Under the pieces are notes generated by a model. That model saw only the letters and a list, made by a program, of their open reading frames with translations, ran no database searches and was not told the origin of the DNA. Positions 26,295 through 42,849 of a stretch of DNA of 63,886 bases are shown here, piece by piece. The position numbers and the translations under genes were made by a program. Origin of the DNA: a virus (taxonomy: Duplodnaviria > Caudoviricetes); IMG/VR virus record IMGVR_UViG_3300050120_000442, positions 1 through 63,886 of that record; one strand, given 5' to 3'. Numbering within the stretch: position 1 is the first letter of the stretch; every line of letters begins with the position of its first letter.

Positions 26295-26308
26295 ATCGGA
26301 GAACCTGA

Positions 26309-27338: not shown

Positions 27339-27366
27339 GTCAAACCACCAACCCAGGAGTAGTTAG

Positions 27367-29835
27367 ATGGCAACGCGCTACTGGGTTGGTGGGACCGGCA
27401 CTTGGGACGCCTCAACGACCACGCACTGGTCAGCTACGTCCGGCGGCTCGGGAGGGGCTACCGCCCCCACTTCTACCGACGACGCTGTCTTCGATAGCGC
27501 CTCGAACGCGACCGCCTACACCGTCAACCCCAGTTCAGGGGTGTGCGCGAACCTCACCATGGCGGCCCCCGCATCGGGGTCTGTCACGCTCGCTAATGGC
27601 GCGCTCGCGATCTCGGCCAGTGTGGCGCTCGCGGTAAGCGGAGTCGTTACGACGGCTACCTTGACCCTTACATCAACATCTACCGGCAACACGATCACCA
27701 CCAACGGGATCACGGTCGGACCGCTCACGTTTGACGGCGTCGGCGGGGGTTGGACCCTTTCGGGTAATGTGGTCAGCAGCGGCGAGGTCAACCTCAATAA
27801 TGGTGCGCTGAGTCTAGGAAACAATAACCTAACCTGTACCGACGTGCGGACCAGCAACTCCAATACCCGAAGCATCGCATTCGGTGTCGGCGGCATATAT
27901 TTAACAGGCAGCAGCAACACTGCCATATTCTACGCAAACACCGCCACGGGGCTGACGCTTACCGGAAGCAAGAACGTATACCTCACCTATTCAGGGTCGG
28001 TAGGTACGCGGTCGATCAATTGGGGTGTGAATGGCGGGACCGTCTCCAACGCCCTCAACGTCTTTGTGACAGGGGGAACCGACACAATCGACGTTGCTAT
28101 GAGCCAGATAGCCAGTCTCGACCTGACAGGCTTCTCCGGGACTATCACAGCAGGGGCAGCCACGACCACTGTGTACGGAAATCTCGTCGTGCCGGCGGCA
28201 GTGACATCCACTGTTGTAGGCGGGAATAATAAGGGCCTGACGTTTGCTCCCCCGACCGGAACAACAGCCACCATCACGACAAACGGTGTCGTAGTTGGCT
28301 TCGCAGTGATGATAAACGGCGCGGGCGCTGTCCAGCTCGCCGGGGACCTATCCCTAAACACTGCCCACACGCTGACCCTGACAGCCGGTACGTTCGATGC
28401 GAACGGCTACAATGTCACCACGGGGATATTCTCATCACCAGGTAGTAGCGCCCGAACCCTGCTGATGGGTAGCGGAACTTGGACGATCACTGGCAGCAGC
28501 ACCTCGGCCTGGGGTGTCGCGGCGACGGGACTAACCATCACCCCAGGCACGTCGCTCATCGACATGACCTCGGCCAGCGCCAAGACGTTCGCGGGCGGCG
28601 GCCTGACCTACTACAACGTCCGCCAGGGCGGCCTCGGCACGCTGACGATCACCGGCAACAACGCATTCAACGACATCAAGAACAACGCCCAGCCGGCGAG
28701 CATCCTGTTTACGCCAAGCGCTACTCAGACCATCGCGAACCTCGCTCTGGCCGGAACTTCTGGGAACCTGATCACCCTCGACACCACTACGGGGGCCGGG
28801 ACGTTCACGCTCAGTTCCCCGTCCGGCCTGCGCTCTGTCTCCTACTGTTCGATCACCAGGTCCACGGCCTCTGGTGGGGCGACATGGTACGCCCGCGCGA
28901 TAGATGGCAACGTCGATGGCGGCAGCAACACCGGCTGGGTATTTTCGGCAATCTCCATCGCCGCGGTCGTAGGGTCATCATCTGTCGCGGGGGTTGGCGT
29001 TGCCCAGGTGGTCACCACAGGCACGGTAACCGGCTGCGGCACCCTCGCGGGCGTCGGCCAGTCCGTCGCTATTGCCACCGGGACGATCACGGGTAGCGGC
29101 ACCGTTGCCGGGGTCGGTGGCTCGACCGCCGCAACCAGGGGCGTCGCGGCTGGCAACAGCACCGTGAGCGGGGTCGGCATCACCCTCGGCGTTTCGGTCG
29201 GCACCCTCGCGGGCAACAGCACCGTCGCCGCTGTCGGTCACTCCACCGCCGAAGCAGCAGGCACACTGGTCGGCTCTAGTTCGGTGGTCGGGAACGACGC
29301 GGCCACGGGCGTAATGGTCGGCACGCTCACGGGCATGTCGTCAGTGGTTGGCAGCATCACCGCGCTCACGCCAACCGTTGGGAACGTGCTCGGGACTAGT
29401 TCAGTTGCGGCCATCGGAGCGTCCACGGCCCTGTCTACGGGATCGCTGACGGGGGCTGCAAACGTGGTTGGCGTCGGGCAGTCTTTCGCCGTGTCCACCG
29501 GCATTATGATCGGGGGCGGCACCCTGGCCGGCGCCGGCCGATCGACCGCCGTATCGGTCGGCTCGCTCACCGGCATCAGCACGGTTGCGGGCACCGGGCA
29601 GGCCAACGCGCTATCTACCGGCGCGATCCTTGGCCTGGGTACGATCGCTGGCGCGATCACCGCAGAGATCTTCACCACGGGCACCCTGACCGGGTCGTCG
29701 TTCCTCAACGGCTACGAGCACGCTATCGCGACGATGACCGGCACCCTGACGGGCGGCAGCGTTCTCTTCGCTCGAACACGCGGCCGAAACAGCCATTACA
29801 CCATGCGGCGACTCTCGATCGCCCGAACCGCCTGA
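27367..29835 (+). CDS. Gly/Thr-rich fibre protein (beta-helical N part, 20-aa repeats in C part)
   Basis: RYWVGG.G.W N-terminus; GNVDGGSNTGW; about 13 repeats with a 20-aa period. Confidence 0.7.
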   Translation: MATRYWVGGTGTWDASTTTHWSATSGGSGGATAPTSTDDAVFDSASNATAYTVNPSSGVCANLTMAAPASGSVTLANGALAISASVALAVSGVVTTATLTLTSTSTGNTITTNGITVGPLTFDGVGGGWTLSGNVVSSGEVNLNNGALSLGNNNLTCTDVRTSNSNTRSIAFGVGGIYLTGSSNTAIFYANTATGLTLTGSKNVYLTYSGSVGTRSINWGVNGGTVSNALNVFVTGGTDTIDVAMSQIASLDLTGFSGTITAGAATTTVYGNLVVPAAVTSTVVGGNNKGLTFAPPTGTTATITTNGVVVGFAVMINGAGAVQLAGDLSLNTAHTLTLTAGTFDANGYNVTTGIFSSPGSSARTLLMGSGTWTITGSSTSAWGVAATGLTITPGTSLIDMTSASAKTFAGGGLTYYNVRQGGLGTLTITGNNAFNDIKNNAQPASILFTPSATQTIANLALAGTSGNLITLDTTTGAGTFTLSSPSGLRSVSYCSITRSTASGGATWYARAIDGNVDGGSNTGWVFSAISIAAVVGSSSVAGVGVAQVVTTGTVTGCGTLAGVGQSVAIATGTITGSGTVAGVGGSTAATRGVAAGNSTVSGVGITLGVSVGTLAGNSTVAAVGHSTAEAAGTLVGSSSVVGNDAATGVMVGTLTGMSSVVGSITALTPTVGNVLGTSSVAAIGASTALSTGSLTGAANVVGVGQSFAVSTGIMIGGGTLAGAGRSTAVSVGSLTGISTVAGTGQANALSTGAILGLGTIAGAITAEIFTTGTLTGSSFLNGYEHAIATMTGTLTGGSVLFARTRGRNSHYTMRRLSIARTA

Positions 29836-29909
29836 CCCCCTATCAGGTGTTGCCGCAAAATCAACCCCGTGCTACATAATCAACCGTCTGTTGATTTTAG
29901 ATCGGGACC

Positions 29910-30434
29910 TTGATGCTCGGCAATTACGACCCGTCCGAAGCCCTGGTCATCGCCGACGAAGGTTCGGCCTTCACGAATAACCCAAAAGATGCAGGCGGCC
30001 CCACACGCTACGGCGTCACCATGATCGCCCTGGCCGACTTCCTCGGGCGCCCGGTATCGATCGCCGAAGTCCAGGCGCTCACCCCCGACTCCGTCAAACC
30101 GATCTACAAGGCCAACTATTGGACCGCCGTGCGCGGCGACGAACTGCCTGCCGGCGTGGACTACTTCCTGTTTGACGCCGCCGTCCAGCACGGTCGGGGC
30201 AGGGCGGTGCGGTTCCTGCAGAGCGCCCTGTTGGTGGATGCTGATGGCGACTTCGGCGACAAGACCAAGCGCGCCCTCGACGGCATCAGCGACACCGTCA
30301 TGCTTATCACGCGGCTTAGCCAAATCCGGCGCGCCTTCTACCAGGGCATTCCCTCCTTCGACACCTTCGGCAAGGGCTGGACGGCCCGGCTGGCGCGCGT
30401 CACCGCGACTTCCACCAACTGGGCAAGGAACTGA
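29910..30434 (+). CDS. Endolysin, glycosyl hydrolase family 108 with PG-binding tail
   Basis: EG...N.P.D.GG.T.YGVT; FD.AV.HG; F..FGKGW..R. Confidence 0.9.
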   Translation: MMLGNYDPSEALVIADEGSAFTNNPKDAGGPTRYGVTMIALADFLGRPVSIAEVQALTPDSVKPIYKANYWTAVRGDELPAGVDYFLFDAAVQHGRGRAVRFLQSALLVDADGDFGDKTKRALDGISDTVMLITRLSQIRRAFYQGIPSFDTFGKGWTARLARVTATSTNWARN

Positions 30435-30436
30435 CC

Positions 30437-30886
30437 ATGGGCATCCTGAACGACGCCGAGGACTTGAGCGGCGGAATCCTCTGGAAGGCTGGCGCGGTTG
30501 CGGGCGGCGTGGCGGCCGTGGTGCTGGGCATCGCGCTCACCGTGTCGAACGTCGAGAAGGGTCACCTTCAGAAGGACTACGACAAGGTCGAGCTGACGAT
30601 CAGCGATCCGCACACGGGTTACCTGGTGCAACTCGCCCAGAGCCGGACCAACGTGGATACTCTGACGGTCCAGGTGAACTCGCAGAACGACCGGATCAAC
30701 GCCATCTCGGCCGCCGACTCGGCCCGGATCGCCGCGCTGACACTGGCCGTCGATACGGCCAACCAAGCGGCGGCCGTGAGCCACTCCAAGATGCTGGCCG
30801 TCATGTCGGCCCCGCTCACCGCAGCGACCGCCTGCGGCCAGTACGACGAGGTCGATGCCCGCGTCCTGAGCCTGCTTCCCCAGTGA
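30437..30886 (+). CDS. Inner-membrane spanin (Rz-like)
   Basis: N-terminal TM helix plus coiled coil, after the lysin. Confidence 0.65.
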   Translation: MGILNDAEDLSGGILWKAGAVAGGVAAVVLGIALTVSNVEKGHLQKDYDKVELTISDPHTGYLVQLAQSRTNVDTLTVQVNSQNDRINAISAADSARIAALTLAVDTANQAAAVSHSKMLAVMSAPLTAATACGQYDEVDARVLSLLPQ

Positions 30887-31062
30887 GTCAAAAGTTCCTG
30901 CTCAGCGCCGATCTCAAGGATACTCCAGGCCGGGTGAAGCTGACGTTCCTGGAGATAACCGTCGAGTACGCCCCGAACAACCGGGACTTCGACGCGCGTC
31001 CGTTCAACCTCCTGGATGCTGATCACCCGATCGTCCAGGTCATCAAGGAATCCTTCAAATGA
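30883..31062 (+). CDS. Small hypothetical protein between the spanin genes
   Basis: GTGA and ATGA overlaps with both neighbours. Confidence 0.5.
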   Translation: MSQKFLLSADLKDTPGRVKLTFLEITVEYAPNNRDFDARPFNLLDADHPIVQVIKESFK

Positions 31063-31367
31063 AGCGCCTTCTCATCGCCGCGGCATCAGTCGGTCTGCTG
31101 CTGGGCGCCTGCGTGGCGACTCCCTCGCCCGCGCCCCCCACGGAAATTGTGACGCAGGACGTGGACAAGCCTGTCGCCGCGTCCTGCGTGCCACCGAACG
31201 TCGGTCCAGCGCCGACAGGTTATGCTGACGACCCGACCGCCATGCGGGCCGCGAAGTCGGGCGCCGCGCGCTATGACCTCTCCGTCCAGGGCAGTTCGGA
31301 CAAAACCGACCGCCTGAACACTATTGAGCCCGTGCTCGAAGCCTGCCGCAAGGCGGGCGCCAAATGA
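31059..31367 (+). CDS. Outer-membrane spanin lipoprotein (Rz1-like)
   Basis: Lipobox LLGAC; Pro-rich; extra Cys residues. Confidence 0.7.
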   Translation: MKRLLIAAASVGLLLGACVATPSPAPPTEIVTQDVDKPVAASCVPPNVGPAPTGYADDPTAMRAAKSGAARYDLSVQGSSDKTDRLNTIEPVLEACRKAGAK

Positions 31368-31693
31368 CCCAGGATACCGCCGACCAGGCCCTTCAGGTTG
31401 CCCAGAGCGCCATCACCCGGATCGACAATCACGAAGAGATTTGCGCGATCCAACTCGCCGCCATCCTCGCCAAGATCGGCGAGCTAAAGAAGGTGATGGC
31501 CTGGAGCGCCGGGATCGTGGCGTCGGTTGTGCTGACCTCGCTCGGCTGGACCGTCGTCTACATCGTGACGTCCAAGGATAACCACGATCACCAGCTCGAA
31601 GCGCAGATCGCCGTGCTGCAGGGCCGCCCGCCCGTCTTCATCGCCCAGGGCAACGGCGACACCACAACCGTCACCCCCCTCAAGCCCCGCTAA
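31364..31693 (+). CDS. Putative holin-like membrane protein
   Basis: RID.HE..CA N-terminus, one TM helix, lysis cassette position. Confidence 0.5.
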   Translation: MTQDTADQALQVAQSAITRIDNHEEICAIQLAAILAKIGELKKVMAWSAGIVASVVLTSLGWTVVYIVTSKDNHDHQLEAQIAVLQGRPPVFIAQGNGDTTTVTPLKPR

Positions 31694-31706
31694 ACCTGGA
31701 GACTCC

Positions 31707-33023
31707 ATGGCCGCAGCGCCCTTTGCCGTAGATCCCGACTGGGCACAGTACGGCACCCCGCGCCAGGTCGAAATCCTTGCGGCGGTGATCCTGCACGGCA
31801 GCAACAAGAAGGCGGCCGACGCGCTCGGGATGGCGCGGCAAAATGTCGATAGGGTCGTCCACAAACTCAGAGCCCGTGCCCTACTGGCCATGCGTCAGGC
31901 GGCGGTCGTGCCCAAGGGAACGGCCGGCTTCGTGGCTCTCGGACTGACCACGGCCTACGACGCCGCTGGCGCGGTCAAGAGCGAGTTTCTCCGCGAAGGC
32001 CCGGCACCGGTGTTCGAGCCAGGCGGGGAGGGGGAAGGCCCGGCGCGCGACGGCACGGACGGTTACTTCATAAAGGGCGTATCCACCTACTACCGCGGTG
32101 ACGGGAGCCAAGGTGGTCAGTGGGTCAAGACGAAGGCCGACGAGGAACAACGCCTCCAGGCGATCATGGCGGCCATTGCGTCGGCCTCCGCGAAGCTCCC
32201 CCGCCTGGTACCGTTACGCGGGCCTTTGCGGACCCTGCGCTCGCTGCTGAACCTCTACGTCTTCACCGACTACCATCTGGGTATGCGGGCTTGGAGCGAA
32301 GAGGGCGGCGCCGACTGGAACATGCAGATCGCCGAAGATCTGATCGTCCGCTGCTTCCAGCAGATGGTCGCGGATGCGCCGGCCGCCAGGGTCGGCTTCA
32401 TCGCCCAGCTCGGCGACTTCCTGCACTTCGATAGCCTGCTTCCGATGACGCCCACCAGCGGCCACGTGGTCGATGCGGCGGCCCACTACGAGCAGATCAT
32501 AGATGCGGCCCTGCGGATCATGCGCCGGCTGATCGACTTCGCCCTGCAGCATCATGAGGAAGTCGTCGTGCTGGCGGCCGAGGGAAACCACGACATCACT
32601 GGCTCGATGTGGCTGCGCGTGGCCATCAAGGCACTATACGAGAACGAGCCCAGGATCACGGTGGTTCGGGCCGCCGCGCCATTCTATGCCTACGAGCATG
32701 GCAAGACGATGCTTTCGTTCCACCATGGTCACCTAGTCAAGAAGGAATCCCTGCCTCTGACCTTCGCCGCAGCCTATGCGCCGATGTGGGGGCGCACGAC
32801 CAAGCGATACGCTCACTGCGGACACTACCACCATGAGGTCACGACCAAGGAAGAGTCCGGGATGCGGGTCCATCAGCATCCGACGCTGGCGCCGAATGAT
32901 AGCCACTCAGCCCGGCACGGGTATTTCTCCCAGCGCCAGACCTCAGTGACGACATACGATGAACGATTTGGGGAAGTTGGTAAGGCCACCCTCACGCCCG
33001 AGATGCTCGCCGACGCTATCTAA
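31707..33023 (+). CDS. HTH plus calcineurin-like metallophosphoesterase
   Basis: DYHLG, GDFLH, GNHD, HHGH, GHYHH motifs; N-terminal HTH (KKAADALGM). Confidence 0.8.
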   Translation: MAAAPFAVDPDWAQYGTPRQVEILAAVILHGSNKKAADALGMARQNVDRVVHKLRARALLAMRQAAVVPKGTAGFVALGLTTAYDAAGAVKSEFLREGPAPVFEPGGEGEGPARDGTDGYFIKGVSTYYRGDGSQGGQWVKTKADEEQRLQAIMAAIASASAKLPRLVPLRGPLRTLRSLLNLYVFTDYHLGMRAWSEEGGADWNMQIAEDLIVRCFQQMVADAPAARVGFIAQLGDFLHFDSLLPMTPTSGHVVDAAAHYEQIIDAALRIMRRLIDFALQHHEEVVVLAAEGNHDITGSMWLRVAIKALYENEPRITVVRAAAPFYAYEHGKTMLSFHHGHLVKKESLPLTFAAAYAPMWGRTTKRYAHCGHYHHEVTTKEESGMRVHQHPTLAPNDSHSARHGYFSQRQTSVTTYDERFGEVGKATLTPEMLADAI

Positions 33024-33238
33024 GCCAGGATCTCAGTGGCCAAACGGCTGAAGAAGCCCACCTCCACACCGCCGTAGCGACCGGCCTCGATCAAGGGCCT
33101 CATGATCTGTCCGAGCAGAGACGCCCCGGCTCCATTCCGCATAGCGAAGATGAGGCGTTCAGCCTCCGCATGACCCTGCTCGTTTTCGAGTTGGTACTGC
33201 GACTTCATTTCAGAAACAAATTCGTTTTTAGCAAGCAT
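33020..33238 (-). CDS. Hypothetical protein
   Basis: 72-aa ORF behind an AT-rich promoter-like gap. Confidence 0.5.
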   Translation of the reverse strand: MLAKNEFVSEMKSQYQLENEQGHAEAERLIFAMRNGAGASLLGQIMRPLIEAGRYGGVEVGFFSRLATEILA

Positions 33239-33364
33239 AACGATACTATTGCCCCCCTACAGGATTTAAGCGGAAAGACGAAAGTCTATAATCCGTAATA
33301 TAAAACATAATAACCGCAGCCATAATGAACACATAAGTTAATCATGTGTCAACCAGTGGTTGAG

Positions 33365-34645
33365 TTATCCTACTAAGTCCTTTTCATGGCTAGTGCCGAG
33401 CAATGTATTTATTTCATTATCGAAATAGAACGGCGCATCTGGTAACAGGAACCGGCGACGAATATCAGCCGAGAAACCATCATTGGCCTCGATCAGTACA
33501 CAGTCGAAACCCTCGGCCTTGGCCGCTGCTCCCGTCGTGCCGCTACCGGCAAAAGGGTCCAGGACCAGGCCGCCGGCCGGCGTCACCAAGCGGCAGAGCC
33601 AGCGCATCAGAGCGATCGGCTTAACGGTGGGGTGTTCGCTACCCGCCCGGTCGGCTTTGCCCGCCTTGGGATGGTAGTGAAGCGGATCTGCGGCAAGTTC
33701 TGCGACCCACTCATCTGAACCTACTGTGAACGCATTGTAGAAACGCGCGGTGTCGCCTGCGAACATTGCCGCCACTTCAGGCGATCCGTCGTGCAAGATA
33801 TTGGCCGGCCAGCGGCCTTTCGGCTGGACGAAGTCTCCACCCCCGTTGCGGAAGCCTGCACCCTTGCCACCCGCCCGATCTTCCGACTGCCACCCAGCCC
33901 CGCGCTCACGGCGCTCACCCGAGTAGGCGCCCCCGTTCAGGTTGTCCTCGGTGGGTGCCCGGCATGCGTCGATGTTGATGGCGCCGACGCCATGCATCAG
34001 GAAGTTCGCGGGGCCGTTCTTCTCGCTGAACGCCTTCTGGCCGACGTAGATGGGTTCCAGGGCGGGCTTGGTCGCCTGCGCCCCGTAATACCAACCGTCC
34101 CAGGCCTCGGCCTCGGGTGACACGGGAATGTATTCTCCGATCACCTTGGCCGGGACCACGCCCAGGTGTTTGTCGATCGCCATGGCCGCGTTGTGGGCCT
34201 TGGGCATTCCCGAGCCGTAGGCCCAGCCGAAGAACGGATGCATGATGAAGCCGGCCAGCTCCATGGCGCAGGCCTGCCAATGGCCGGTGCGCGGGCTGCT
34301 GAACGCCAGGACGTAGCCGCCGGGCTTGAGCACCTGGTAGATCAGATGCCAGAACTCCGGGTCGCGCTCGATGCCCGTGGCGTCCCAGGTGTTGCCCATG
34401 AACCCCCTGGACGCTCGGGCGAAGGCGCCGTCAGTCCCGTGCTTGGCCGGCGCGGCGTCCGCCTTCCCGAACCGCTTCGTGATCGAGGTCAGGCCATAGG
34501 GTGGGTCTGTGCAAACCGAGTCGACGAAGACACCATTCGCGATCATCCATCGCAGGACTTCGCGGTTATCGCCTTGGTGGAACTGAAGCTGGGTCACTGG
34601 GTCAGCTCCATTCCAAAGGTTAACGTGCTTTGGTGCGTCGAACAA
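33365..34645 (-). CDS. DNA N6-adenine/N4-cytosine methyltransferase (beta class)
   Basis: TDPPY precedes HPTVKP and LDPFAGSGTT; start uncertain (possibly GTG near 34597). Confidence 0.9.
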   Translation of the reverse strand: MFDAPKHVNLWNGADPVTQLQFHQGDNREVLRWMIANGVFVDSVCTDPPYGLTSITKRFGKADAAPAKHGTDGAFARASRGFMGNTWDATGIERDPEFWHLIYQVLKPGGYVLAFSSPRTGHWQACAMELAGFIMHPFFGWAYGSGMPKAHNAAMAIDKHLGVVPAKVIGEYIPVSPEAEAWDGWYYGAQATKPALEPIYVGQKAFSEKNGPANFLMHGVGAINIDACRAPTEDNLNGGAYSGERRERGAGWQSEDRAGGKGAGFRNGGGDFVQPKGRWPANILHDGSPEVAAMFAGDTARFYNAFTVGSDEWVAELAADPLHYHPKAGKADRAGSEHPTVKPIALMRWLCRLVTPAGGLVLDPFAGSGTTGAAAKAEGFDCVLIEANDGFSADIRRRFLLPDAPFYFDNEINTLLGTSHEKDLVG

Positions 34646-34661
34646 GAACGAAAGGAGAACA

Positions 34662-34898
34662 TCAGCCGATCAGATCATCATCTTCGTCGGCACCGGTGAA
34701 CGGCATCACCGGCTGCAGGCTCATGTCGTAGCGCGTGGCCTTCGCCCGCCGGACGATAGACTCGAGCTTGGCGACGAAGGCAGGGATCGCGTTAATCCCC
34801 ATCACGTGCCCTGGGTGACCCTGGACGACGTGGCGCAGCCGCATGGTGATCGACTGGTCGCCGACTTCGATATCCAGGTTGCCGCAGTTTATGGTCAT
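34662..34898 (-). CDS. Hypothetical protein
   Basis: Overlap-coupled; ends DEDDDLIG. Confidence 0.6.
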   Translation of the reverse strand: MTINCGNLDIEVGDQSITMRLRHVVQGHPGHVMGINAIPAFVAKLESIVRRAKATRYDMSLQPVMPFTGADEDDDLIG

Positions 34899-35242
34899 CC
34901 GATCAGGTCGTCCTCAGGCGATGCCGGGGAGGGCTCCACGTGGGCCGGATCGACGTCGTCGTCACCCAGAGCCGGGGCGCGGGTCGTCTTGCCATCACTG
35001 GCCTTCTGGAGGGCGTGCAGGACAGCATCCGGCGCAGAGGGGCCATAGGCAAACTCGAAGAACTCGCTGTGGTCGCGCTTGCGGAGCGAGCATTGCCACT
35101 GGCCATCCGACCGGTGGCAGAGGTTGGACACGCGCAGCCCGCCCTCGCGGACCACCCGGAACAGGCGCTCCAGGGGTGGCGGGATGGCCATGGCCAGCAT
35201 CTGGGCGATCTCACCCTGCCGGGTCGCGGTATAGGCGCTCAT
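34895..35242 (-). CDS. Hypothetical protein
   Basis: Overlap-coupled to ctrA; ends PEDDLIG. Confidence 0.6.
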   Translation of the reverse strand: MSAYTATRQGEIAQMLAMAIPPPLERLFRVVREGGLRVSNLCHRSDGQWQCSLRKRDHSEFFEFAYGPSAPDAVLHALQKASDGKTTRAPALGDDDVDPAHVEPSPASPEDDLIG

Positions 35243-35982
35243 GCAGCGTTCTCATGCCAAGCTCGATGTTCGGCTGACCCATCGTTGGCGGCCTCGGGTT
35301 GGACAGGCGCCGGGACCTCGCGCAGGACGTAGCCGCGGCCCCAGACCGTTTCGATACAGTCGCCGGCACCCGCAAGCTTCAGCTTCTTGCGCAGCTTGCA
35401 GATGAACACGTCGATGATCTTGATCTCGGGCTCATCCATGCCGCCGTAGAGGTGGTTGAGGAAGACCTCCTTGGTGAGGACGTTCCCCTTACGGAGCGCC
35501 AGTAGCTCCAGCATCCCGTATTCCTTGCCGGTCAGGTGGATAGGCTTGCCGTTTACCTGGAGGCCCTTGGCACGGGTATCGAGCGACAGGGCGCCAATCT
35601 CCAACAGCGATTGCGCATGACCCTTCGACCGGCGGATGATCGCGTCACCCCTGGCTATCAACTCGTCCAGGGCGAGCGGGATACCCAGATAGTCGTCGGC
35701 GCCGGCCGCGAACATGCGGACTTTTGCGTCGATGTCGGTAGTAGTCGAGATGATCATCACCGGGGACGCGATCTTCGCCGCCCTGATGCGGCGCAGAACA
35801 TCCAAGCCCGTCATATCGGGCAGGTCTAGGTTCAGCACGATCAGGTCGTATTCGTAGATCTTGGCCAAATCGATGGCTTCCGCGCCGAGGTCAGTCGTGA
35901 ACACCGTCTGCCCAGACGCCTTGAGCGCCAGTTCCATGGACCGGGCCAGGTTGTCGTCCATCTCGGCGATCAGGACTCGCAT
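35239..35982 (-). CDS. ctrA: CtrA homologue (OmpR-family regulator) with degenerate receiver domain
   Basis: Diagnostic CtrA strings TTDLG, RRSKGHAQS, HLTGKEY.MLELL.LRKG, FLNHLYGGMDEPE.KIIDVFICKLRKKL, IETVWGRGYVLR. Confidence 0.95.
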   Translation of the reverse strand: MRVLIAEMDDNLARSMELALKASGQTVFTTDLGAEAIDLAKIYEYDLIVLNLDLPDMTGLDVLRRIRAAKIASPVMIISTTTDIDAKVRMFAAGADDYLGIPLALDELIARGDAIIRRSKGHAQSLLEIGALSLDTRAKGLQVNGKPIHLTGKEYGMLELLALRKGNVLTKEVFLNHLYGGMDEPEIKIIDVFICKLRKKLKLAGAGDCIETVWGRGYVLREVPAPVQPEAANDGSAEHRAWHENAA

Positions 35983-36290
35983 CACTTGGCTCCGTCGCAA
36001 AATTGATCAGGGGTGACTGAGGACGAGAGGTCGCCAAGGCCGCCCGACCAGCCTGGAATATCGACCAGGTAAGTCTTGGTGACCGGATCTAGGCCGACGA
36101 CTGTCCCGTTGGCGCATGTTCGGACAGCAGAGGCGCGCGCCCACTTCTCCGCGCGCACCGCAGCCGGATCTGTTGTCGGCGCACAGGCCGCTAGGCTGGC
36201 CAACGCAGTTAGGCCCATCATGAGCGATATCGCGCTGCCCACGGCAAGCAGTAGTCCGACCATGCGCGGCGTGTTGATCGACGACATCAC
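35982..36290 (-). CDS. Putative lipoprotein / membrane protein
   Basis: Hydrophobic N-terminus followed by LAAC. Confidence 0.55.
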   Translation of the reverse strand: MMSSINTPRMVGLLLAVGSAISLMMGLTALASLAACAPTTDPAAVRAEKWARASAVRTCANGTVVGLDPVTKTYLVDIPGWSGGLGDLSSSVTPDQFCDGAK

Positions 36291-36571
36291 AGACCCCCGA
36301 TCGCGGCGAGATAGAGGTCGAGGATGGCCTCTTCCTCCAGTCGCTTCGCCTCGTCCTGCTTGCGCAGGCGCACGACCATACGAAGGATCTTGACGTCGAA
36401 CCCTTCTCCCTTGGCTTCGAGGTAGACTTCCTTGATGTCCGCCATCACGGCAGCCTTGTCCTCATCCAGGCGCTCGACGCGCTCGATGATGGTCTTGAGG
36501 CGCCCCTGGGCAGTGGAGTTCAGGACGTCGATCGAAGCGTCGTCGCCGCTGTTGTGTCCCATGCCAGCCAT
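36287..36571 (-). CDS. gapR: GapR (DUF2312) nucleoid-associated protein
   Basis: DVLNSTAQG.LK.IIERVERL...IKEVY.EAKG.GFDVK...EAILDLYL.AIG closely matches Caulobacter GapR as I recall it. Confidence 0.92.
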   Translation of the reverse strand: MAGMGHNSGDDASIDVLNSTAQGRLKTIIERVERLDEDKAAVMADIKEVYLEAKGEGFDVKILRMVVRLRKQDEAKRLEEEAILDLYLAAIGGL

Positions 36572-36930
36572 CAGGCGGCGACCTTCTGCACTCGACCAAC
36601 CCTGGGCTTCGGCGCCTTGTAGGGCTCGGCGAGAGCGGCGCGCAGCGCGACCCCGAACCGCTGGCTCGACGAAAGGTACTTCGCCGGCAGCTCCGACACC
36701 TGGCAGTGCCGCACCGCCTCGATCGTCAGCCTGCGCGACATCCGCTTGCGTTCGCCGCGGGTCATCCGAACGCTCTCGACCGATCCGTCCGGCTGGAGGA
36801 TATCGACGTCCTTCACATTCTTCGACGGACGGCGAACGCCGCCACGCGGGGCGTGCCCGGCCTTGTAGTCGCGACCCATGGCCTGGGCCTGAGCCCACGG
36901 AACGAAGAGAGTTTGAGCTGCGTTAAACAT
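36571..36930 (-). CDS. Basic hypothetical protein, first gene of the gapR-ctrA operon
   Basis: GGAG SD; TGATG coupling to gapR; ends KVAA. Confidence 0.6.
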   Translation of the reverse strand: MFNAAQTLFVPWAQAQAMGRDYKAGHAPRGGVRRPSKNVKDVDILQPDGSVESVRMTRGERKRMSRRLTIEAVRHCQVSELPAKYLSSSQRFGVALRAALAEPYKAPKPRVGRVQKVAA

Positions 36931-36989
36931 TTCGATCTCCGGTTTATTGGTCAACTTTAGGTTGATAATTATGGAAGCGCAAGGCCTCA

Positions 36990-37208
36990 TTAACGACGAA
37001 ATGCAGGTCGGTTCGTAAGGTCGGCCCAGTCCTGCATACGGACCTCGGAGTCGCCGCGCTTGCGGGCCTGCTCGGCAGCCCAGACGGCGTGCTCAGGCGT
37101 TCCAGGTTCGACAACCCTCGACACCGGCACAGGGCGTTTGCAAAGCGCGCACGCGCAGCCTAGGCCTGGGATGTAGACGTGGTCGAGCAGGTTTTCGTCG
37201 TCAGTCAT
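36990..37208 (-). CDS. Hypothetical protein
   Basis: Overlap-coupled ORF; CxCxxC. Confidence 0.5.
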   Translation of the reverse strand: MTDDENLLDHVYIPGLGCACALCKRPVPVSRVVEPGTPEHAVWAAEQARKRGDSEVRMQDWADLTNRPAFRR

Positions 37209-37507
37209 GCTGCCAGTTTCTCCTTGGCACGGCGGCCCTTACGGGTGTCCCAGGTTTCCAGGAATCGATGGGGATTGCCGGGGCGAGCGATAGCCGGTTT
37301 TGCCCGATGGCCTTCACGAAGGGCGTAGACAGGTCGGGCGAACTTTCCCCGGCCTGGCGACTTGTCGATCCGCTCGATCGCGTATTTCAGGCAACCGATG
37401 ACCCGGCCGCGTGCCGCTTTAGGGATGAAGGCATACAACTCGGCCAGGGTGGCAGGGCCGAGGGCTAGCCGCGCCAGGATCAGCGGCGGGTAGATGGATT
37501 TGCTCAT
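37205..37507 (-). CDS. Basic hypothetical protein (possible wHTH)
   Basis: Overlap-coupled; GP.T..EL pattern; ends KLAA. Confidence 0.5.
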   Translation of the reverse strand: MSKSIYPPLILARLALGPATLAELYAFIPKAARGRVIGCLKYAIERIDKSPGRGKFARPVYALREGHRAKPAIARPGNPHRFLETWDTRKGRRAKEKLAA

Positions 37508-37743
37508 GCTGAGATCATGTAGCCGCGGCGGTCGGATTTCTCCGCCGTACGCAGCTCCATCTTCACAATGCCGGCGCCAACGAAGCGCGCGAGCTGCTGG
37601 CCTCGGTCGTTGGTGGTCAGCAGCCGGCAGGCCTTGCGTTCGGCCTTCAGGCGCCCACGGGCGAGGAAGACGACGAAGGTCATCGCCCGGCCGTCATAGA
37701 TGCCGACCAGTTTCCAACGCGTTCTTTCATCTGTTCCGCTCAT
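37504..37743 (-). CDS. Hypothetical protein
   Basis: Overlap-coupled ORF. Confidence 0.5.
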   Translation of the reverse strand: MSGTDERTRWKLVGIYDGRAMTFVVFLARGRLKAERKACRLLTTNDRGQQLARFVGAGIVKMELRTAEKSDRRGYMISA

Positions 37744-37747
37744 GGAG

Positions 37748-37990
37748 TCAGATGCCTTTCATGCCAGTGAGGTTGATGGTTAAGGTGCGCTTCGTGGTGC
37801 CTTCGCTTTTTCCTTCAACAGGGGTGGCGTTGAGGAGGGCGTTGAGGAGGGCGTTGAGGAGGGCGTTGATCGTGCCGCGTGTTTCAGGGCCGGCGGTGTA
37901 AAAGAACGCGGGCCAGAACGTCCCAAGATGCTCGATCAGCAAGAGTTCGTTCTCGTCGCTAAGCCCCTCAGGGGAGGTGTTGGAGGTCAT
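37748..37990 (-). CDS. Hypothetical protein containing NALL tandem repeat
   Basis: ATGA overlap with the upstream gene. Confidence 0.45.
   Translation of the reverse strand: MTSNTSPEGLSDENELLLIEHLGTFWPAFFYTAGPETRGTINALLNALLNALLNATPVEGKSEGTTKRTLTINLTGMKGI
37826..37869. repeat. 12-bp tandem repeat (GGCGTTGAGGAG) x3.7
   Basis: Three exact units plus GGCGTTGA. Confidence 0.95.
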
Positions 37991-38400
37991 GGGGTGGGGT
38001 CCTTGATTTGGCCAGCGGCCCATTCGCGCATCCGTTGCCAGCGCGTCTCGGGCGTGTCGTCGTGCCAGCCGCCTTCGTCGTTCAGGTATTCGATCTCCTG
38101 AACGAGCGGCGCAGCGATACCGAAGGCGCGAGCGACTTGATCGGGGTCTTCCACGTCGATGCCATCCATCTCGACGCCCCGCTTCATGCCGACGCTGCCG
38201 ATGGCGCAGACCGAACCCTCTTTGTAGAGGTCGTGCGCGATCAGTCGCTTTTCGGGTAGAGCATCTAGGGCCTCGACCAACTCTTTCAGGAAGGCTTGCC
38301 CCCGCTTTCCCCGGATTGTGCTGGCGACAATTCCGCGCCACCGACCAAGTGCCAGAGCGTCGTCAATGCCATAGTCCTCGGAATATCCTGAGCGGCTCAT
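37987..38400 (-). CDS. Conserved-looking phage hypothetical protein
   Basis: MSRSGY..D, GKRGQAFL.EL..ALDA.PEKRLI, ETRW.RMR.W. Confidence 0.7.
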   Translation of the reverse strand: MSRSGYSEDYGIDDALALGRWRGIVASTIRGKRGQAFLKELVEALDALPEKRLIAHDLYKEGSVCAIGSVGMKRGVEMDGIDVEDPDQVARAFGIAAPLVQEIEYLNDEGGWHDDTPETRWQRMREWAAGQIKDPTP

Positions 38401-39566
38401 TTGTCTTCTCCTATCTGGGAGTCTGAAATCATGGCGCGGTACATCCGCATGAACCGGCCATCGCCTAGCCAGACGCCGTGGTCCTTGCAGTAGTCCGTTG
38501 CCGCTACGATCATCGCCTCAGTCGGCTCTTTCGGAACCAGCACCATCCCCTTAGGCACGCTACTAGCTGGGAAGAGGGCGAGAGCCGCCGCCAGCATCTT
38601 GCGGCTGCGGTCTGCGGTTTCGCGCATGTGCGATATGGTGGCGGGGCCGTCCCGGCTATGGGGCTCTAGACCCGCCTTGAACAGGGCTGGGGCAGCTACA
38701 CGACAGGCCGCCAAAACCATTTCATCAGTCACCTCCTCCCGTGTTGGCCGTTGGGTGGGTTGGGGTGTTGGGGCGGCCCACGATGCCAGTTCTGCGAGCC
38801 AATCAATGGGCTCCCCACCCCCTGTATCTGCTAGGGCGTCTAGAGCGGATAGGGCGTAGTCGTCGGCGGCTTCTCCGAACTCCGCGTCCTCAACCCGCAT
38901 CAGGGCAAGCTCAGGCTCGGCCTGGATGGAATTGTGCGTGTCGGTGCAGCCCTTCTCTTGAAGGAGGGCGTTTCGGACGGCCATGATTTCTGCCCAACCG
39001 TCGCCGTCGTTCAGGGCGTGAAGATTGCCGTGGTGGTAGGCGTCCTCGGCGAGCGTCAGCAGCGGACGGATCGCTTCCTCCAGCCCCGCTATCCTTTCAC
39101 GGGCCTTGGAGAGTTCGGCTTGCAACTCTTCGACGGTTTCTAGCGCGGCCTTTAGCTCGCCCTCTCGATTTCCGGCGTCGTGCTCCTGGTCTTCGGTCAG
39201 AATGGTCAGCCGCTCGTTCTCTTTCTTCAGCTTGGAGAGTTGGGCTTTCATAGCCGTCCATCCGGACAACTCGTCCCGCCAACCCGGGATAAACATGTCC
39301 AACGCGCCCGTGCCGAAGCCTCCGCGACAGTTACGGCCTTCTAGATCGATCAGGGCAGGTTGAGCGCTCCACTTCTTGCAGTAGCCCTCGTAAGCTCGCA
39401 GGTGCATGTGCCAGGGGATGCCTTCTGGCCAACCTTGCACCGGGGCGCGTTTCTCGACCGCCCGTTCCAATTCGTTCTGTTCACTCTCGGAGGGCATTAG
39501 GTCCGCCTGCTGTTGTGAGTTATTGTATTCGCTTGCGTTTGGGCTGGTAGACGTCGAGTTGTCCAT
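38397..39566 (-). CDS. Mosaic hypothetical protein (Ead/Ea22-like style)
   Basis: Coiled coil plus VTDEMV and G.VLVPKEPTEAM modules; start uncertain. Confidence 0.55.
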   Translation of the reverse strand: MDNSTSTSPNASEYNNSQQQADLMPSESEQNELERAVEKRAPVQGWPEGIPWHMHLRAYEGYCKKWSAQPALIDLEGRNCRGGFGTGALDMFIPGWRDELSGWTAMKAQLSKLKKENERLTILTEDQEHDAGNREGELKAALETVEELQAELSKARERIAGLEEAIRPLLTLAEDAYHHGNLHALNDGDGWAEIMAVRNALLQEKGCTDTHNSIQAEPELALMRVEDAEFGEAADDYALSALDALADTGGGEPIDWLAELASWAAPTPQPTQRPTREEVTDEMVLAACRVAAPALFKAGLEPHSRDGPATISHMRETADRSRKMLAAALALFPASSVPKGMVLVPKEPTEAMIVAATDYCKDHGVWLGDGRFMRMYRAMISDSQIGEDK

Positions 39567-39843
39567 TGAGACGGCGGCCTTTCTTTTGTGCGGCACGGAT
39601 CACGATCTCCCGATCACGTATGATCCCAGCGGCGCGTTTGAAGTTGTTGGCGGCGAACAGATCGTTGTCGCCTTCGGTCCAAACGATTGTTTGCTTGATG
39701 TGGGTCAGGCGAACCGTGCCGCCGGACCCGCGGACTGCTACGAGCTGCGCCGCATCCTCGGGATACTTGCACCACCCCAGGTACTCGTCGTCTGGGCTGA
39801 ACACCTTGTATTTCGGAGACATATCGTAGGTGCTGTTGCCCAT
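39520..39843 (-). CDS. Hypothetical protein
   Basis: GAAGGA SD. Confidence 0.55.
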   Translation of the reverse strand: MGNSTYDMSPKYKVFSPDDEYLGWCKYPEDAAQLVAVRGSGGTVRLTHIKQTIVWTEGDNDLFAANNFKRAAGIIRDREIVIRAAQKKGRRLNGQLDVYQPKRKRIQ

Positions 39844-39868
39844 CGTATCGTCCTTCTTCGTGCCGGGA

Positions 39869-40300
39869 TTATTTGCCCGCGCACCACCGCAATATCTGGC
39901 TGTCCGGCCCTGGTCGCGCCCACATCACGCCATCGGCTAGGTCAGGGTAAACCGGGGTTATCGGGATACAGGGGATGTTCTCATTGTGATAGTATAGAGC
40001 GTCGCAGTCCGGGGGCTCTTGGCCTGCGACGACAATGGAGAGCCGCCGACGCGTAATCTCATGATACGGGTCCTTCCAGTAGACTAGGCAGCTAGCCTTG
40101 GATGTGATCGGTCGCACGACAAGCCGGCGGGGCAGCACTCGCGCCAGGTACGGCGGCATCACCAGCGGACGCGGGGCAATCTTGATGGGCCTGGTGACCG
40201 CGACCTCGACGCCAGACAGGTCCGCGACCTGAGCGAAGGTCGAGGAAGCGGCGCAGAGCATGGCGCAGGCCATCAGAGAGATCGCGATGAGCGGTTTCAT
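39869..40300 (-). CDS. Hypothetical exported protein
   Basis: Signal-peptide-like N-terminus; GAGGA SD. Confidence 0.45.
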   Translation of the reverse strand: MKPLIAISLMACAMLCAASSTFAQVADLSGVEVAVTRPIKIAPRPLVMPPYLARVLPRRLVVRPITSKASCLVYWKDPYHEITRRRLSIVVAGQEPPDCDALYYHNENIPCIPITPVYPDLADGVMWARPGPDSQILRWCAGK

Positions 40301-40590
40301 GGGTAGTTCCTCTTTACCGCCTGCGCGGCTTCGTATTGGTCCTGGGCACTACGACCGGGAGGCGGATCGCCCATGATCTGAGCCGTCACGACCCTGGAGG
40401 GCTTGCGGTTGTCGTTGGCGCTGCGGCGAAAGATGATGCCGGACTCTGCGCCCGTCTGCTGGATTTCGCGCGGCGCGATAGACCGACCGTTGTCGAACAC
40501 AACCCCCTTTGATGACCCATGCTCAACCGGTTGTGAAGTCCTCGGCGAAAAGTTGTCCCAGGGCGTGACGGCTCTGATCTTGGCTTTCAT
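40297..40590 (-). CDS. Hypothetical protein
   Basis: Overlap-coupled; IMGDPPPGRSA motif. Confidence 0.5.
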   Translation of the reverse strand: MKAKIRAVTPWDNFSPRTSQPVEHGSSKGVVFDNGRSIAPREIQQTGAESGIIFRRSANDNRKPSRVVTAQIMGDPPPGRSAQDQYEAAQAVKRNYP

Positions 40591-40760
40591 GACCGCACCA
40601 GCCCGGCCATGCGTTCCTTCATGGCGATCTCGTTGCGGATGCGGTCGCGCCCGCCGAGCCGCTGATAGACGCCCTGCATGACCCGCATCTGGTCTTCGGT
40701 GTGCCGGCCCTCCATCAGGGCGAGCAGCGCCTTTTCCTCGGTCGCGTTGAGGGTCAGCAT
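40587..40760 (-). CDS. Hypothetical protein
   Basis: AGGA SD; overlap-coupled. Confidence 0.5.
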   Translation of the reverse strand: MLTLNATEEKALLALMEGRHTEDQMRVMQGVYQRLGGRDRIRNEIAMKERMAGLVRS

Positions 40761-41455
40761 GACGGCCGGTCCTGCTCGGTGTGCTCGATCTGAAGGCTGG
40801 ATTGGTGGTGGCTGGTGATGCACGCGACACCGGTGGAGTCCGTCCACTCGACGATGGCCATCCCAGCTTTCGTATGACCGCGGACCTCGCCTGACGGGCC
40901 ACCGTGCCAATGCCGAACCGTGTCGCCGACATCGAATTTGCGCGGGGTCTGCCAACTGCATGGCGTGCGGCCGTGGTAGCGGACGGCGTCGCTAAACAGC
41001 GACTTGGCGGCGGGCTCGGCCGCGACTTCCCGAGCACAAGCTTCCGCAAGCTTCGTGGCGTCGGACTTCTCGATGATGGGGCGGTGGATCAGCTTGAAGC
41101 GGGTAGACATCCAGCAATGCGGTCGGTCTTTTAGAACGACGTAGCCGTGCGCGTTGACATATTGGGTAAGAACTACGTGCTTATCGCCCGTCTCAAGAAG
41201 ACCGCCGCTGTCGTATGCATCGACGACTTGAACCATATCGCCGGGAAGAAACTCTCCCGGATTCTCGATCACCTCGTAGTGTTCGGCCGGACACCAACTG
41301 GAGCAACCCGCCTGATCCAGGTAGCGGATGCAGGGCGGTCCAGAGATGCGGTTGGCGACACTGGTCACCACCACGACATCGCCGATGTCGTGGCAGCCAG
41401 CGATGGGAAAGCAGATGCGGCGAACCGTATCGCCAGCCTTCAGCGGGCGTCCCAT
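40754..41455 (-). CDS. Hypothetical protein with three SH3/KOW-like modules
   Basis: LKAGDTVR, FLPGDMVQ, FDVGDTVR repeats; TGATG coupling. Confidence 0.55.
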   Translation of the reverse strand: MGRPLKAGDTVRRICFPIAGCHDIGDVVVVTSVANRISGPPCIRYLDQAGCSSWCPAEHYEVIENPGEFLPGDMVQVVDAYDSGGLLETGDKHVVLTQYVNAHGYVVLKDRPHCWMSTRFKLIHRPIIEKSDATKLAEACAREVAAEPAAKSLFSDAVRYHGRTPCSWQTPRKFDVGDTVRHWHGGPSGEVRGHTKAGMAIVEWTDSTGVACITSHHQSSLQIEHTEQDRPSC

Positions 41456-41709
41456 CAGCGTGCGCCCGACTTGCCGACCTTGCGGCGGTTCTTGATGACG
41501 CTGGCACGGGCAGCGGCCGATGCACGCTTGTCGCTGAGCAGGATCGCCCGGCGTTGGCCTTGCCGAGACAGGACCGCCGCCGGCGGTCCATAGGTTGCGG
41601 TGTTCGCTTCGAGCTTGGCGATGTGGTTGAACCGAGTCCGATCGGCGCCAGTCTTCACGACTTCCGGATAGGTCTTCGTCTCGGTGTTGGTGGCCGTCGC
41701 GCTGGTCAT
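41455..41709 (-). CDS. Basic hypothetical protein
   Basis: GAGG SD, downstream of operator 41769. Confidence 0.55.
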   Translation of the reverse strand: MTSATATNTETKTYPEVVKTGADRTRFNHIAKLEANTATYGPPAAVLSRQGQRRAILLSDKRASAAARASVIKNRRKVGKSGAR

Positions 41710-41791
41710 CTGTGCCTCTGTCTCTCAACTGCGTGTTGAGAGGATGAAGCCATGGCGCTAAACCATAGTCAACCGAAAGTTGATTATGTTC

Positions 41792-42127
41792 TCAACTTTT
41801 TTGGGACTGACCGATCTCAAGATTGCCGCCGCCTGGCACGCCGACCTTGATCTCCGACGCGGTGTTGGACGACACGAAGATCAGCAGGCCCACAGCCTGG
41901 ACGCCGAGCGACACCCAGAGCGCGATGCCGATGGCCTTGATCACGTCATGCAGGGCACTCTCGGGGAAGGCGTGCAGGGTGAGCCACGCCGTGAGCGCGA
42001 AGGTCTCGATCATCACCGAGGCAAGGAAGCAGATCAGCGTCCACTCGCCCTTCGTCGTCGGCTTGATCGTCTTGACCATGGCCGGCGTCTCGATCGCCGC
42101 GGCCTGGCCGTCTGTCATTTCAGGCAT
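41792..42127 (-). CDS. Two-TM membrane protein
   Basis: Two clear hydrophobic helices. Confidence 0.55.
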   Translation of the reverse strand: MPEMTDGQAAAIETPAMVKTIKPTTKGEWTLICFLASVMIETFALTAWLTLHAFPESALHDVIKAIGIALWVSLGVQAVGLLIFVSSNTASEIKVGVPGGGNLEIGQSQKS

Positions 42128-42234
42128 GATGGCGCATCCGAGGACTGGGGTTAATGCGCCACATAATCACGTAAAGGTGGATTTGTCCACGTTTAGGTTG
42201 ACTGTGTGATTGCGGCGTGATCTGGTCGGCGGGT

Positions 42235-42356
42235 CAAGTCGAGCCGATGTGCCCGCGATGTTGAGACCTAGCAGGAGGCTGTCATGAAATATCACGGATA
42301 GATGCCGTCATCATGTGAGCACCCAAGGCCCTTCCGTTCAGTCGGGAGGGCCTTTT
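42235..42356 (+). ncRNA. Candidate small RNA / minigene transcript
   Basis: TTGACT at 42198, AGGAGG SD then ATG AAA TAT CAC GGA TAG, intrinsic terminator. Confidence 0.4.
42325..42356 (+). terminator. Rho-independent terminator
   Basis: AAGGCCCTTCCG-TTCAGT-CGGGAGGGCC-TTTT. Confidence 0.8.
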
Positions 42357-42505
42357 GATTCCTGACTCACGGCTGCGGCTAGAGCCCACATTTTCCGGGA
42401 ACGAGCTGCATCCCTACCCAGGGGGCCAATTCGGATCTGACCCCCTGGACCTTGCCTCTGCCAGCGTTGCGGTGCAACGGTGCGCGCCACGACATGGGGG
42501 ATGCG

Positions 42506-42829
42506 ATGCGCGGATTTGCTCTAGGGGTTGGCCTGGCGGCGCTGATTGGATTAGCGGGTTGCACTAGCGTCGGATCGAACTTTGATCAGGCGACGGCCGA
42601 CGCGTTGGCGCCCGGCATGACGTTCGCCGAGGTTCGCGCAAAGCTAGGGGCGCCCAATGCCATCGCAACACGCGCGGATGGGTCAACCGTCGCCACGTGG
42701 ACTCATGGGGACGTGAACGGGTTTACGGGTAAGGTCGCGGCGCGCGCCGTGCGGATATCCTTTGACACGTCCGGCCGGATGACTGGCCAGATTCAGCGGT
42801 CACAGATTGCCGGCGGCCCGCGTCTATAG
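42506..42829 (+). CDS. BamE/SmpA-OmlA-like lipoprotein (moron)
   Basis: Lipobox LAGC; L.PGMT.AEV...LG.P motif; opposite strand to its neighbours. Confidence 0.7.
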   Translation: MRGFALGVGLAALIGLAGCTSVGSNFDQATADALAPGMTFAEVRAKLGAPNAIATRADGSTVATWTHGDVNGFTGKVAARAVRISFDTSGRMTGQIQRSQIAGGPRL

Positions 42830-42849
42830 GCCCGCAACATGGCAGACTC

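Follow-up and report, generated by a model that had tools for sequence, protein, structure and literature searches.

What use would a temperate phage have for a copy of CtrA whose phosphorylation site has been destroyed? CtrA is the essential master regulator of the alphaproteobacterial cell cycle, controlled by a phosphorelay and by proteolysis, and its reach extends to flagella, pili and gene-transfer agents. The question is raised by a ctrA-like gene in IMG/VR record IMGVR_UViG_3300050120_000442, analysed here over its positions 1 to 63,886 (hereafter the window). An original prediction, made from the letters of the DNA alone, held that the gene encodes a CtrA that cannot be phosphorylated, retains its DNA-binding domain, and has escaped the host proteins CckA and ChpT. 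I propose that the product is a kinase-independent pseudo-receiver CtrA that dimerizes and occupies host CtrA boxes, a reading to which I assign a probability of about 0.5, and that it probably acts on host CtrA-controlled genes with no need of the host signalling pathway.

The gene is a full-length, intact open reading frame (ORF) of 247 amino acids, running on the minus strand from an ATG at 35982 to a TGA at 35239-35241. Its parts and four telling codons are these:

35239..35982, minus strand: ctrA-like gene, 247 codons plus TGA (from the ORF, its translation, Pfam and NCBIfam)
35626..35982, minus strand: pseudo-receiver domain, residues 1-119 (from the codons, a gap-free alignment to the CtrA receiver and the AlphaFold2 fold)
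35320..35610, minus strand: CtrA-type winged-helix DNA-binding domain (DBD), residues 125-221 (from Trans_reg_C and conserved columns)
35242..35319, minus strand: C-terminal tail, residues 222-247, with the end Asn-Ala-Ala (from the translation)
35959-35961, minus strand: codon ATG for M8, Asp in cellular CtrA (read directly)
35830-35832, minus strand: codon AAC for N51, the phospho-acceptor column, Asp in cellular CtrA (read directly)
35824-35826, minus strand: codon GAC for D53 (read directly)
35680-35682, minus strand: codon ATC for I101, the conserved Lys of T-K-P-F in cellular CtrA (read directly)

That the protein descends from CtrA, as had been claimed, is evident from its profile matches. 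Among NCBIfam models the CtrA equivalog NF045991 scores highest, with 325.7 bits over residues 1-222, and the runner-up, PmrA, reaches 151. The cut-off for the equivalog is 350 bits, so the protein is to be regarded as derived from CtrA yet outside the curated equivalog. Pfam recognizes both domains: Response_reg (PF00072) over residues 3-111 with 70.6 bits, above the family cut-off, and Trans_reg_C (PF00486) over residues 145-220 with 73 bits. The gap-free match to the receiver of Caulobacter-type CtrA also held up. Alignment to the Brucella CtrA receiver (4qpj) is without gaps over residues 1-118, and against Caulobacter segnis CtrA (P0099), with which it has 61% overall identity, the first gap appears only near residue 206. 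In an AlphaFold2 monomer model (mean predicted local distance difference test score, pLDDT, 82.8; predicted template modelling score 0.71) the chain folds into a (beta-alpha)5 receiver, mostly above pLDDT 90, and a winged helix; residues 227-247 fall below 50 and form a predicted disordered tail.

Within this CtrA frame the phosphorylation pocket has been dismantled, much as the original prediction had it. Asn stands at the acceptor position, residue 51; the E-D-D of the pocket has become E7-M8-D9 (GAG, ATG, GAC); and the K-P-F stretch reads GIPL, its Lys replaced by I101 (the position is 101 in CtrA numbering, not the 105 first given). S79 (TCG) and Y98 (TAT) are retained, as are D9 and D56 in the alignment to CtrA. 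Since the residues lost are the metal-binding Asp, the phospho-acceptor and the Lys that coordinates the phosphoryl group, no switching by CckA and ChpT should be possible. It is too much to ask of sequencing errors that they account for these changes: M8 and I101 each lie 2-3 base changes from Asp or Lys codons, and so are not single errors. The stretch 35614-35850, which covers the codons of N51, D53, S79 and I101, recurs without a difference in a contig of another run (X2; different study code, habitat and year the same). In contigs from three peat-metagenome DNA runs, most differences over 35384-35540 and 36289-36532 belong to the ctrA and gapR of other organisms and are not variants of the phage.

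How unusual are the losses? CtrA ORFs were extracted from 79 of 80 genome-contig loci and compared along with those of 80 metagenome-contig loci. Asp51 is found in 78 of the 79 genome-borne proteins and Asp8 in 77, Lys101 is found in all 79, and the metagenome CtrAs have each of the three in 80 of 80 cases; D51 and K101 are both kept in all 158 cellular or metagenomic CtrAs examined. The sole genome-borne exception at residue 51 is a 252-residue protein with A51 and P8 (L086:10001-10759) on the chromosome of Bradyrhizobium oligotrophicum S58. It lies between a phage-type DNA polymerase gene (7389-9404) and an integrase fragment (12772-13505) and is thus prophage-borne, and in a tree it clusters with viral proteins that have Glu at position 51. 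Asp at position 53 occurs in no cellular or metagenome CtrA examined (0 of 84 and 0 of 80). One oddity met along the way is P0003, a CtrA of 350 residues on a 1660-bp contig with an internal duplication of about residues 52-155, which may be an assembly artefact.

The two halves of the protein have fared very differently. When columns at least 97% invariant among 78 cellular CtrAs are taken as near-invariant, the window protein departs from 12 of 49 in the receiver and from 1 of 47 in the DBD (T168V; Fisher p = 0.0018). The non-conservative receiver changes are D8M, E34A, D51N, G80T, T100G, K101I and F103L, all of which except E34A fall in the four loops of which the phosphorylation pocket is made up. 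Near-invariant pocket residues are altered in 3 of 3 cases, compared with 9 of 46 other receiver columns (p = 0.012). Mean identity to cellular CtrAs is 51% in the receiver and 68% in the DBD, where cellular CtrAs show 78% and 82% among themselves. The recognition region is as close to the cellular one as was first noticed, with 15 of 16 residues of the recognition helix (186-201) identical to C. segnis CtrA and the wing, IETVWGRGYVLR, wholly so. Comparison with the nearest viral relative, L089, puts the ratio of nonsynonymous to synonymous substitution rates (dN/dS) at about 0.35 in the receiver and at 0.28 in the DBD, dS being close to saturation; G+C at third codon positions is 0.81, similar to that of neighbouring genes. 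Read at the level of sequence, the pattern says that DNA binding has apparently remained under CtrA-like purifying selection while the chemistry of phosphorylation was abandoned.

Is the window protein alone in this? Of 39 loci that a profile-guided scan of IMG/VR brought up, 19 encode two-domain CtrA-like proteins besides that of the window, and 11 of these 19 are without D51. The residues found there are:

Asp at residue 51, 8 loci: L089, L090, L091, L093, L096, L097, L098, L102
Glu at residue 51, 6 loci: L092, L094, L095, L099, L101, L104
Asn at residue 51, 2 loci: L100, L107
Val at residue 51, 1 locus: L105
Ser at residue 51, 1 locus: L106
Arg at residue 51, 1 locus: L103, whose N-terminus aligns poorly

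Glu at the acceptor is the classical phosphomimetic. All six Glu51 proteins have lost D8 (to S, P or N) yet keep K101, and L100 combines Asn51 with a lost Lys, as the window protein does. Receiver domains are recognized by Pfam to very different degrees: 74 bits for L104 and, beside the 70.6 of the window protein, 31 for L100, 25 for L105 and no match for L107. At about 20 further viral loci the winged helix alone is kept, and the same is true of the isolated phages RDJL Phi1, RDJL Phi2, RDJL6 and those of the RcD cluster. This wider pattern, together with three pocket losses beside a conserved DBD, supports the predicted variant independent of CckA and ChpT. A search of viral contigs with the degenerate pattern L-N-L-D-L-P-D gave 36 loci, none of them coding a relative.

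Three details of the viral set may be recorded here. The Glu51 genes lie at about 6001-6850 of each locus, and the record of L092, rated 100% complete, carries direct terminal repeats. In L103 (3222-3959) the first 50 or so residues cannot be aligned to a receiver and the protein is canonical from DMDGYEVL onward; a fusion or a problem of reading frame may lie behind this. L124-L127 encode receiver-less viral proteins with a CtrA-type winged helix.

The nearest relative, L089, comes from a 65.3-kb viral contig whose terminase is 54% identical to that of the window and in which a GapR-like gene lies directly upstream of ctrA; its CtrA keeps the canonical E-D-D, D51 and K101. In a quick maximum-likelihood tree the window protein pairs with L089 (Shimodaira-Hasegawa-like approximate likelihood-ratio test, SH-aLRT, 82) and sits with Caulobacter CtrA (SH-aLRT 92), at the end of a branch of 1.24 substitutions per site, where cellular CtrAs have about 0.1-0.3. 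At least seven changes between Asp and non-Asp at position 51 are required by the free tree, whose support is weak (6 of 49 branches are starred). A common terminase was found in one of five viral records checked. The differing residues at position 51 and the differing phage backbones suggest that the loss of D51 was convergent.

How might a receiver that accepts no phosphate still work? The residues that form salt bridges across the alpha4-beta5-alpha5 face in dimers (K87, D96, D97, E107, R111, R117, R118) are all kept. A homodimer model of the receiver (two copies of residues 1-120) reached 0.71 in interaction prediction score from aligned errors (ipSAE), and the best of three controls 0.00; of proteins solved as pairs 20 of 30 reach the ipSAE mark, and of those solved as single chains 1 of 23 does. 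Different runs share at least 96% of contacts, with a partner pLDDT of at least 93, and place the interface at residues 84-98 and 104-119, that is, on alpha4-beta5-alpha5.

The model I propose runs as follows. The protein would dimerize through this conserved face without phosphorylation. The CtrA winged helix being complete, it should recognize host CtrA boxes, and upon expression of the leftward gene array to which it belongs it would occupy host CtrA sites. The CtrA regulon, which in model Alphaproteobacteria takes in the replication origin and genes for flagellum or pilus, division and methylation, would be uncoupled from the cell-cycle clock of the host. Activity would be set by the level of the protein and not by phosphorylation, through synthesis from the phage operon and possibly turnover by ClpXP. 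Asp53, two residues past the acceptor, may partly mimic the phosphorylated state in the manner of the N54D allele of VirG, N54 being presumably the corresponding acceptor + 2 position. That allele is described as constitutive and phospho-mimicking in the available text of PMC11885899. An "on-like" mimic is favoured by this precedent and by the fact that Asp53 is unseen in other CtrAs, and I lean towards it by analogy, as the least secure step of the proposal.

Whose CtrA boxes would the protein occupy? The CtrA box of the host is TTAA-N7-TTAA. This motif serves as the CtrA box also in the part of PMC9437464 that was available. The 63.9-kb window contains no perfect copy and two with one mismatch (1.83 are expected), both in or beside coding sequence. 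Its only copy of TTAACCAT, at 37776-37783, is inside an ORF (37748-37990), as happens in 23 of 100 shuffles. With no excess of CtrA boxes in the phage, the evidence points to targets in the host.

The fate of the protein may be written in its tail. It finishes ...HENAA, and the Ala-Ala end that had been pointed out is therefore present; turnover by ClpXP through a disordered tail with this ending is possibly what follows. The same ending occurs in 5 of the 19 viral two-domain CtrA-likes, in 4 of 13 winged-helix-only viral ORFs and in gp59 of phage RcGingersnap, a viral rate not clearly above the cellular one.

Several facts weigh against the proposal. Replacement of Asp by Asn at the acceptor normally gives an "off" mimic. 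A receiver without its conserved Lys can usually no longer make the switch to the active state, and the window protein could therefore be locked off. Receiver dimers of the OmpR/PhoB family have already been solved, and the success of the dimer model may thus reflect only family likeness. As for the tail, an Ala-Ala end is found in 13 of the 78 cellular CtrAs examined (30 end in AS and 8 in SA), and the 26 residues before the stop can be neither aligned with the Caulobacter CtrA tail nor considered homologous to it; the ending being rare and the tail non-homologous, targeting to ClpXP can only be inferred. One clade uniting the window protein and the Glu51/Ala51 set survives an approximately unbiased (AU) test (p-AU 0.295), which leaves independent, convergent loss of D51 undemonstrated. 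Finally, the protein is a singleton: its closest match among 5.8 billion proteins is about 65% identical, and the closest in genome contigs and in metagenome contigs are at 62% and 63%.

If the protein is indeed locked in an unphosphorylated, weakly active state, it might antagonize host CtrA as a dominant-negative or decoy, either by competing for CtrA boxes without activation, by forming dead heterodimers across alpha4-beta5-alpha5, or by titrating ChpT or the ClpXP adaptor pathway. An acceptor Asn and loss of the conserved Lys are classic inactivating changes in response-regulator biochemistry. Dimer-face residues are the same as in cellular CtrAs, which makes heterodimers conceivable; helix alpha1 (NLARSMELALKAS), which docks ChpT in the 4qpj complex, falls inside the sequence variation of cellular CtrAs, P0004 among them; and the terminal Ala-Ala is carried on a predicted disordered tail. 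However, neither occlusion nor a receiver-only decoy needs a DBD that has kept 46 of 47 columns, including those outside the recognition helix. Among other viral CtrA-likes the favoured residue is Glu51, an activating mimic, and many phage versions have dropped the receiver and kept the winged helix, which suggests that the DNA-binding half is the part under selection. I regard antagonism of this kind as a serious rival, though less likely than the main reading. Less is to be said for a regulator of the phage's own genes, governing their timing or the choice between lysis and lysogeny, perhaps from non-canonical sites. The gene does share its long leftward array with genes for replication and with a repressor-like one (46869-47285), and host CtrA regulates genes of several Alphaproteobacteria phages, according to the available part of PMC9437464. 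But CtrA boxes in the window are not above chance, the lone TTAACCAT lies within an ORF as it does in many shuffles, and from an unchanged recognition helix a new specificity is not to be expected, all of which makes this role decidedly improbable.

The remaining two alternatives concern the receiver itself. One would have the gene decaying, or carried as a neutral passenger, and the original prediction had named relaxed selection on a decaying gene as the finding that would sink it. A singleton on so long a branch, with three catalytic residues gone, invites that thought. Yet the frame of 247 codons is intact and aligns without gaps to CtrA, its start and stop overlap the neighbouring genes, and neutral decay would hit both domains, where instead 46 of 47 DBD columns and 37 of 49 receiver columns are kept; relaxed selection is not what these figures describe, and I give decay very little chance. 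The other would have the protein still phosphorylated, at another acceptor such as D53 or D9. There is an Asp two residues past the lost acceptor, and D9 and D56 are retained. Against it, Asp8 and Lys101 are gone, and G80 (beside S79) and the T100-K101-P-F103 loop are altered, so that the catalytic geometry for any nearby acceptor is missing, and phosphorylation elsewhere is scarcely credible. The kinase-independent, DNA-binding CtrA accordingly remains the reading I prefer.

Where does such a protein stand among known regulators? It shares with the cellular CtrAs of Caulobacter, Brucella and Rhodobacter a two-domain architecture, and Caulobacter CtrA also ends in Ala-Ala; it differs from them in D8M, D51N and K101I, in G80T, T100G and F103L besides, in being encoded by a prophage, and in its non-homologous 26-residue tail. 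Regulators of the OmpR/PhoB family with pseudo-receivers (HP1043/HsrA, ChxR, RitR, GlnR, CmrT) are like it in that a receiver lacking the acceptor and pocket residues is still recognizable to profiles, and the dimer predicted for the window protein, on alpha4-beta5-alpha5 without phosphorylation, may be a further likeness. RitR presumably has Asn at its acceptor site too. The available part of a review of pseudo-receivers (PMC12632262) reports that the solved ones are dimers, that activity may depend on synthesis and degradation, and that Glu is the commonest residue at the acceptor site of receivers without the aspartate; the words "phage" and "CtrA" do not occur in the review. Known pseudo-receivers are chromosomal and have regulons of their own, whereas the window protein is a phage-carried, recent derivative of an essential master regulator under phosphorelay control.

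Laboratory alleles offer another comparison. Activity independent of the kinase, which the substitutions in CtrA D51E and D51A and in VirG N54D confer, is what is proposed for the window protein. CtrA D51E is reportedly kinase-independent in Caulobacter, and Glu51 occurs naturally in 6 of the 19 viral CtrA-likes; VirG N54D shares with the window protein an Asp at acceptor + 2. No tested allele combines Asn51 and Asp53 with loss of D8 and K101, as the window protein does. D51A and D51E alleles have also been made in R. capsulatus CtrA (PMC10589892, in its available part). The window protein and its Glu51 relatives would be natural versions of D51 alleles long used in the laboratory, and would extend the pseudo-receiver regulators, which are poorly understood, by a branch carried on phages.

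The original prediction also stated that phage-borne CtrA homologues had been reported. This holds for winged-helix-only ORFs, such as those of RDJL Phi1 and Phi2, and no full-length ones were found in print or in annotated phage records. RDJL Phi1, RDJL Phi2, RDJL6 and gp59 of the RcD cluster have a CtrA-type recognition helix. The RcD phages belong by terminase to the same phage family as the window, with a methylase 47-48% identical and a GapR-like gene nearby, and gp59 of RcGingersnap (L002:2923-3528) shares the Ala-Ala end. Unlike the window protein, the RDJL and RcD ORFs have no receiver: Pfam finds Trans_reg_C only, plus an N-terminal DUF6456 in gp59. In the available text of Hynes et al. 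2016 (PMC5026251) the RDJL Phi1 ORF is similar to "a portion of" CtrA, and the GenBank records of RDJL Phi1 and Phi2 put the label "ctrA" on the winged-helix-only ORF. Mascolo et al. 2022 (PMC9437464, available part) deal with host CtrA sites in phage genomes and not with CtrA encoded by phages. No description of a full-length phage CtrA, or of one with an altered phosphorylation site, was found in the literature searched, which left supplements and most subscription journals aside.

A more general idea, which I hold only tentatively and think somewhat doubtful, is that phages of Alphaproteobacteria repeatedly capture ctrA and turn it into kinase-independent forms, a general class of host takeover that seizes the cell-cycle regulon independently of CckA and ChpT, often with a ClpXP-type Ala-Ala tail. 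The forms would be Glu51 without D8, Asn51 and Asp53 without D8 and K101, degenerate receivers, and winged helices with no receiver. If the idea is right, the class seizes the replication origin, flagellum and pilus receptors and division, and the Ala-Ala end lets host proteolysis clear the mimic. The window protein would be the most stripped-down full-length example, in a Chi-like phage; the best-known Chi-like phages adsorb to flagella, a structure under CtrA control. Phages are known to read host CtrA through sites in their own genomes (PMC9437464, available part), and a CtrA brought by a phage would be the reverse, writing to the regulon.

The carrier and the neighbours of the gene are as follows:

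1..63886, no strand assigned: temperate siphovirus-type prophage, Chi-like or Casjensviridae-like by terminase (from the provirus call, PHROG and the terminase)
36287..36571, minus strand: gene for a GapR-like nucleoid-associated protein (Pfam GapR_DNA-bd 1e-30; Caulobacter GapR structures 6ozx and 6jyk, about 4e-33)
35982..36290, minus strand: 102-residue ORF between the GapR-like and ctrA-like genes, hydrophobic, with a signal-peptide or lipobox-like N-terminus (L-A-A-C)
34895..35242, minus strand: family-less downstream ORF of 115 residues, its ATG overlapping the ctrA-like stop (ATGA)
33365..34645, minus strand: N6/N4 DNA methylase gene with a DPPY motif, at the end of the leftward array (Pfam N6_N4_Mtase)

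The claim that the gene is phage-borne is borne out by the structural, replication and integrase genes of the window, which comes from a peat metagenome and is classed by IMG/VR as a provirus, 98% complete. PHROG matches include the large terminase, portal, protease, major head protein, tape measure and tail protein, and for replication and lysogeny a primase/helicase, exonuclease, DNA polymerase, repressor-like protein and integrase. The large terminase shares 53-57% identity with those of Achromobacter phage AchV4, Rhizobium phage RHph_X2_30, Loktanella phage pCB2051-A and Ruegeria phage DSS3-P1, and it matches as well the Rhodobacter RcD cluster, a group placed in Casjensviridae.

The ctrA-like gene lies inside a long leftward array that extends from about 52.1 kb to 33.0 kb, where the order of transcription is GapR-like gene, lipoprotein-like ORF, ctrA-like gene, two small ORFs and DNA methylase. 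The GapR-like gene, two genes upstream, is 74% identical to the one directly upstream of ctrA in L089. The stop of the 102-residue ORF overlaps the ATG of the ctrA-like gene (TGATG); Pfam assigns this ORF to no family, and the other viral loci compared lack a counterpart. The methylase, 47-48% identical to that of the Rhodobacter RcD phages, was considered as a CcrM and rejected, its match to CcrM 6pbd being weak (32 bits) and limited to a single motif region. A scan of 33000-39000 for promoters and terminators gave nothing above shuffled controls, and a tRNA scan gave none within the window.

Elsewhere in the window, G+C falls to 0.53 at 46000-48300, compared with about 0.63 in the remainder. 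Next to the dip are the repressor-like gene (46869-47285, phrog_4268) and a gap of some 1 kb that precedes the primase/helicase gene; the prophage may have a regulatory region or its origin here. At 37826-37869 lies a 12-bp tandem repeat, perfect over 3.7 copies, which encodes (N-A-L-L)n in the small minus-strand ORF at 37748-37990.

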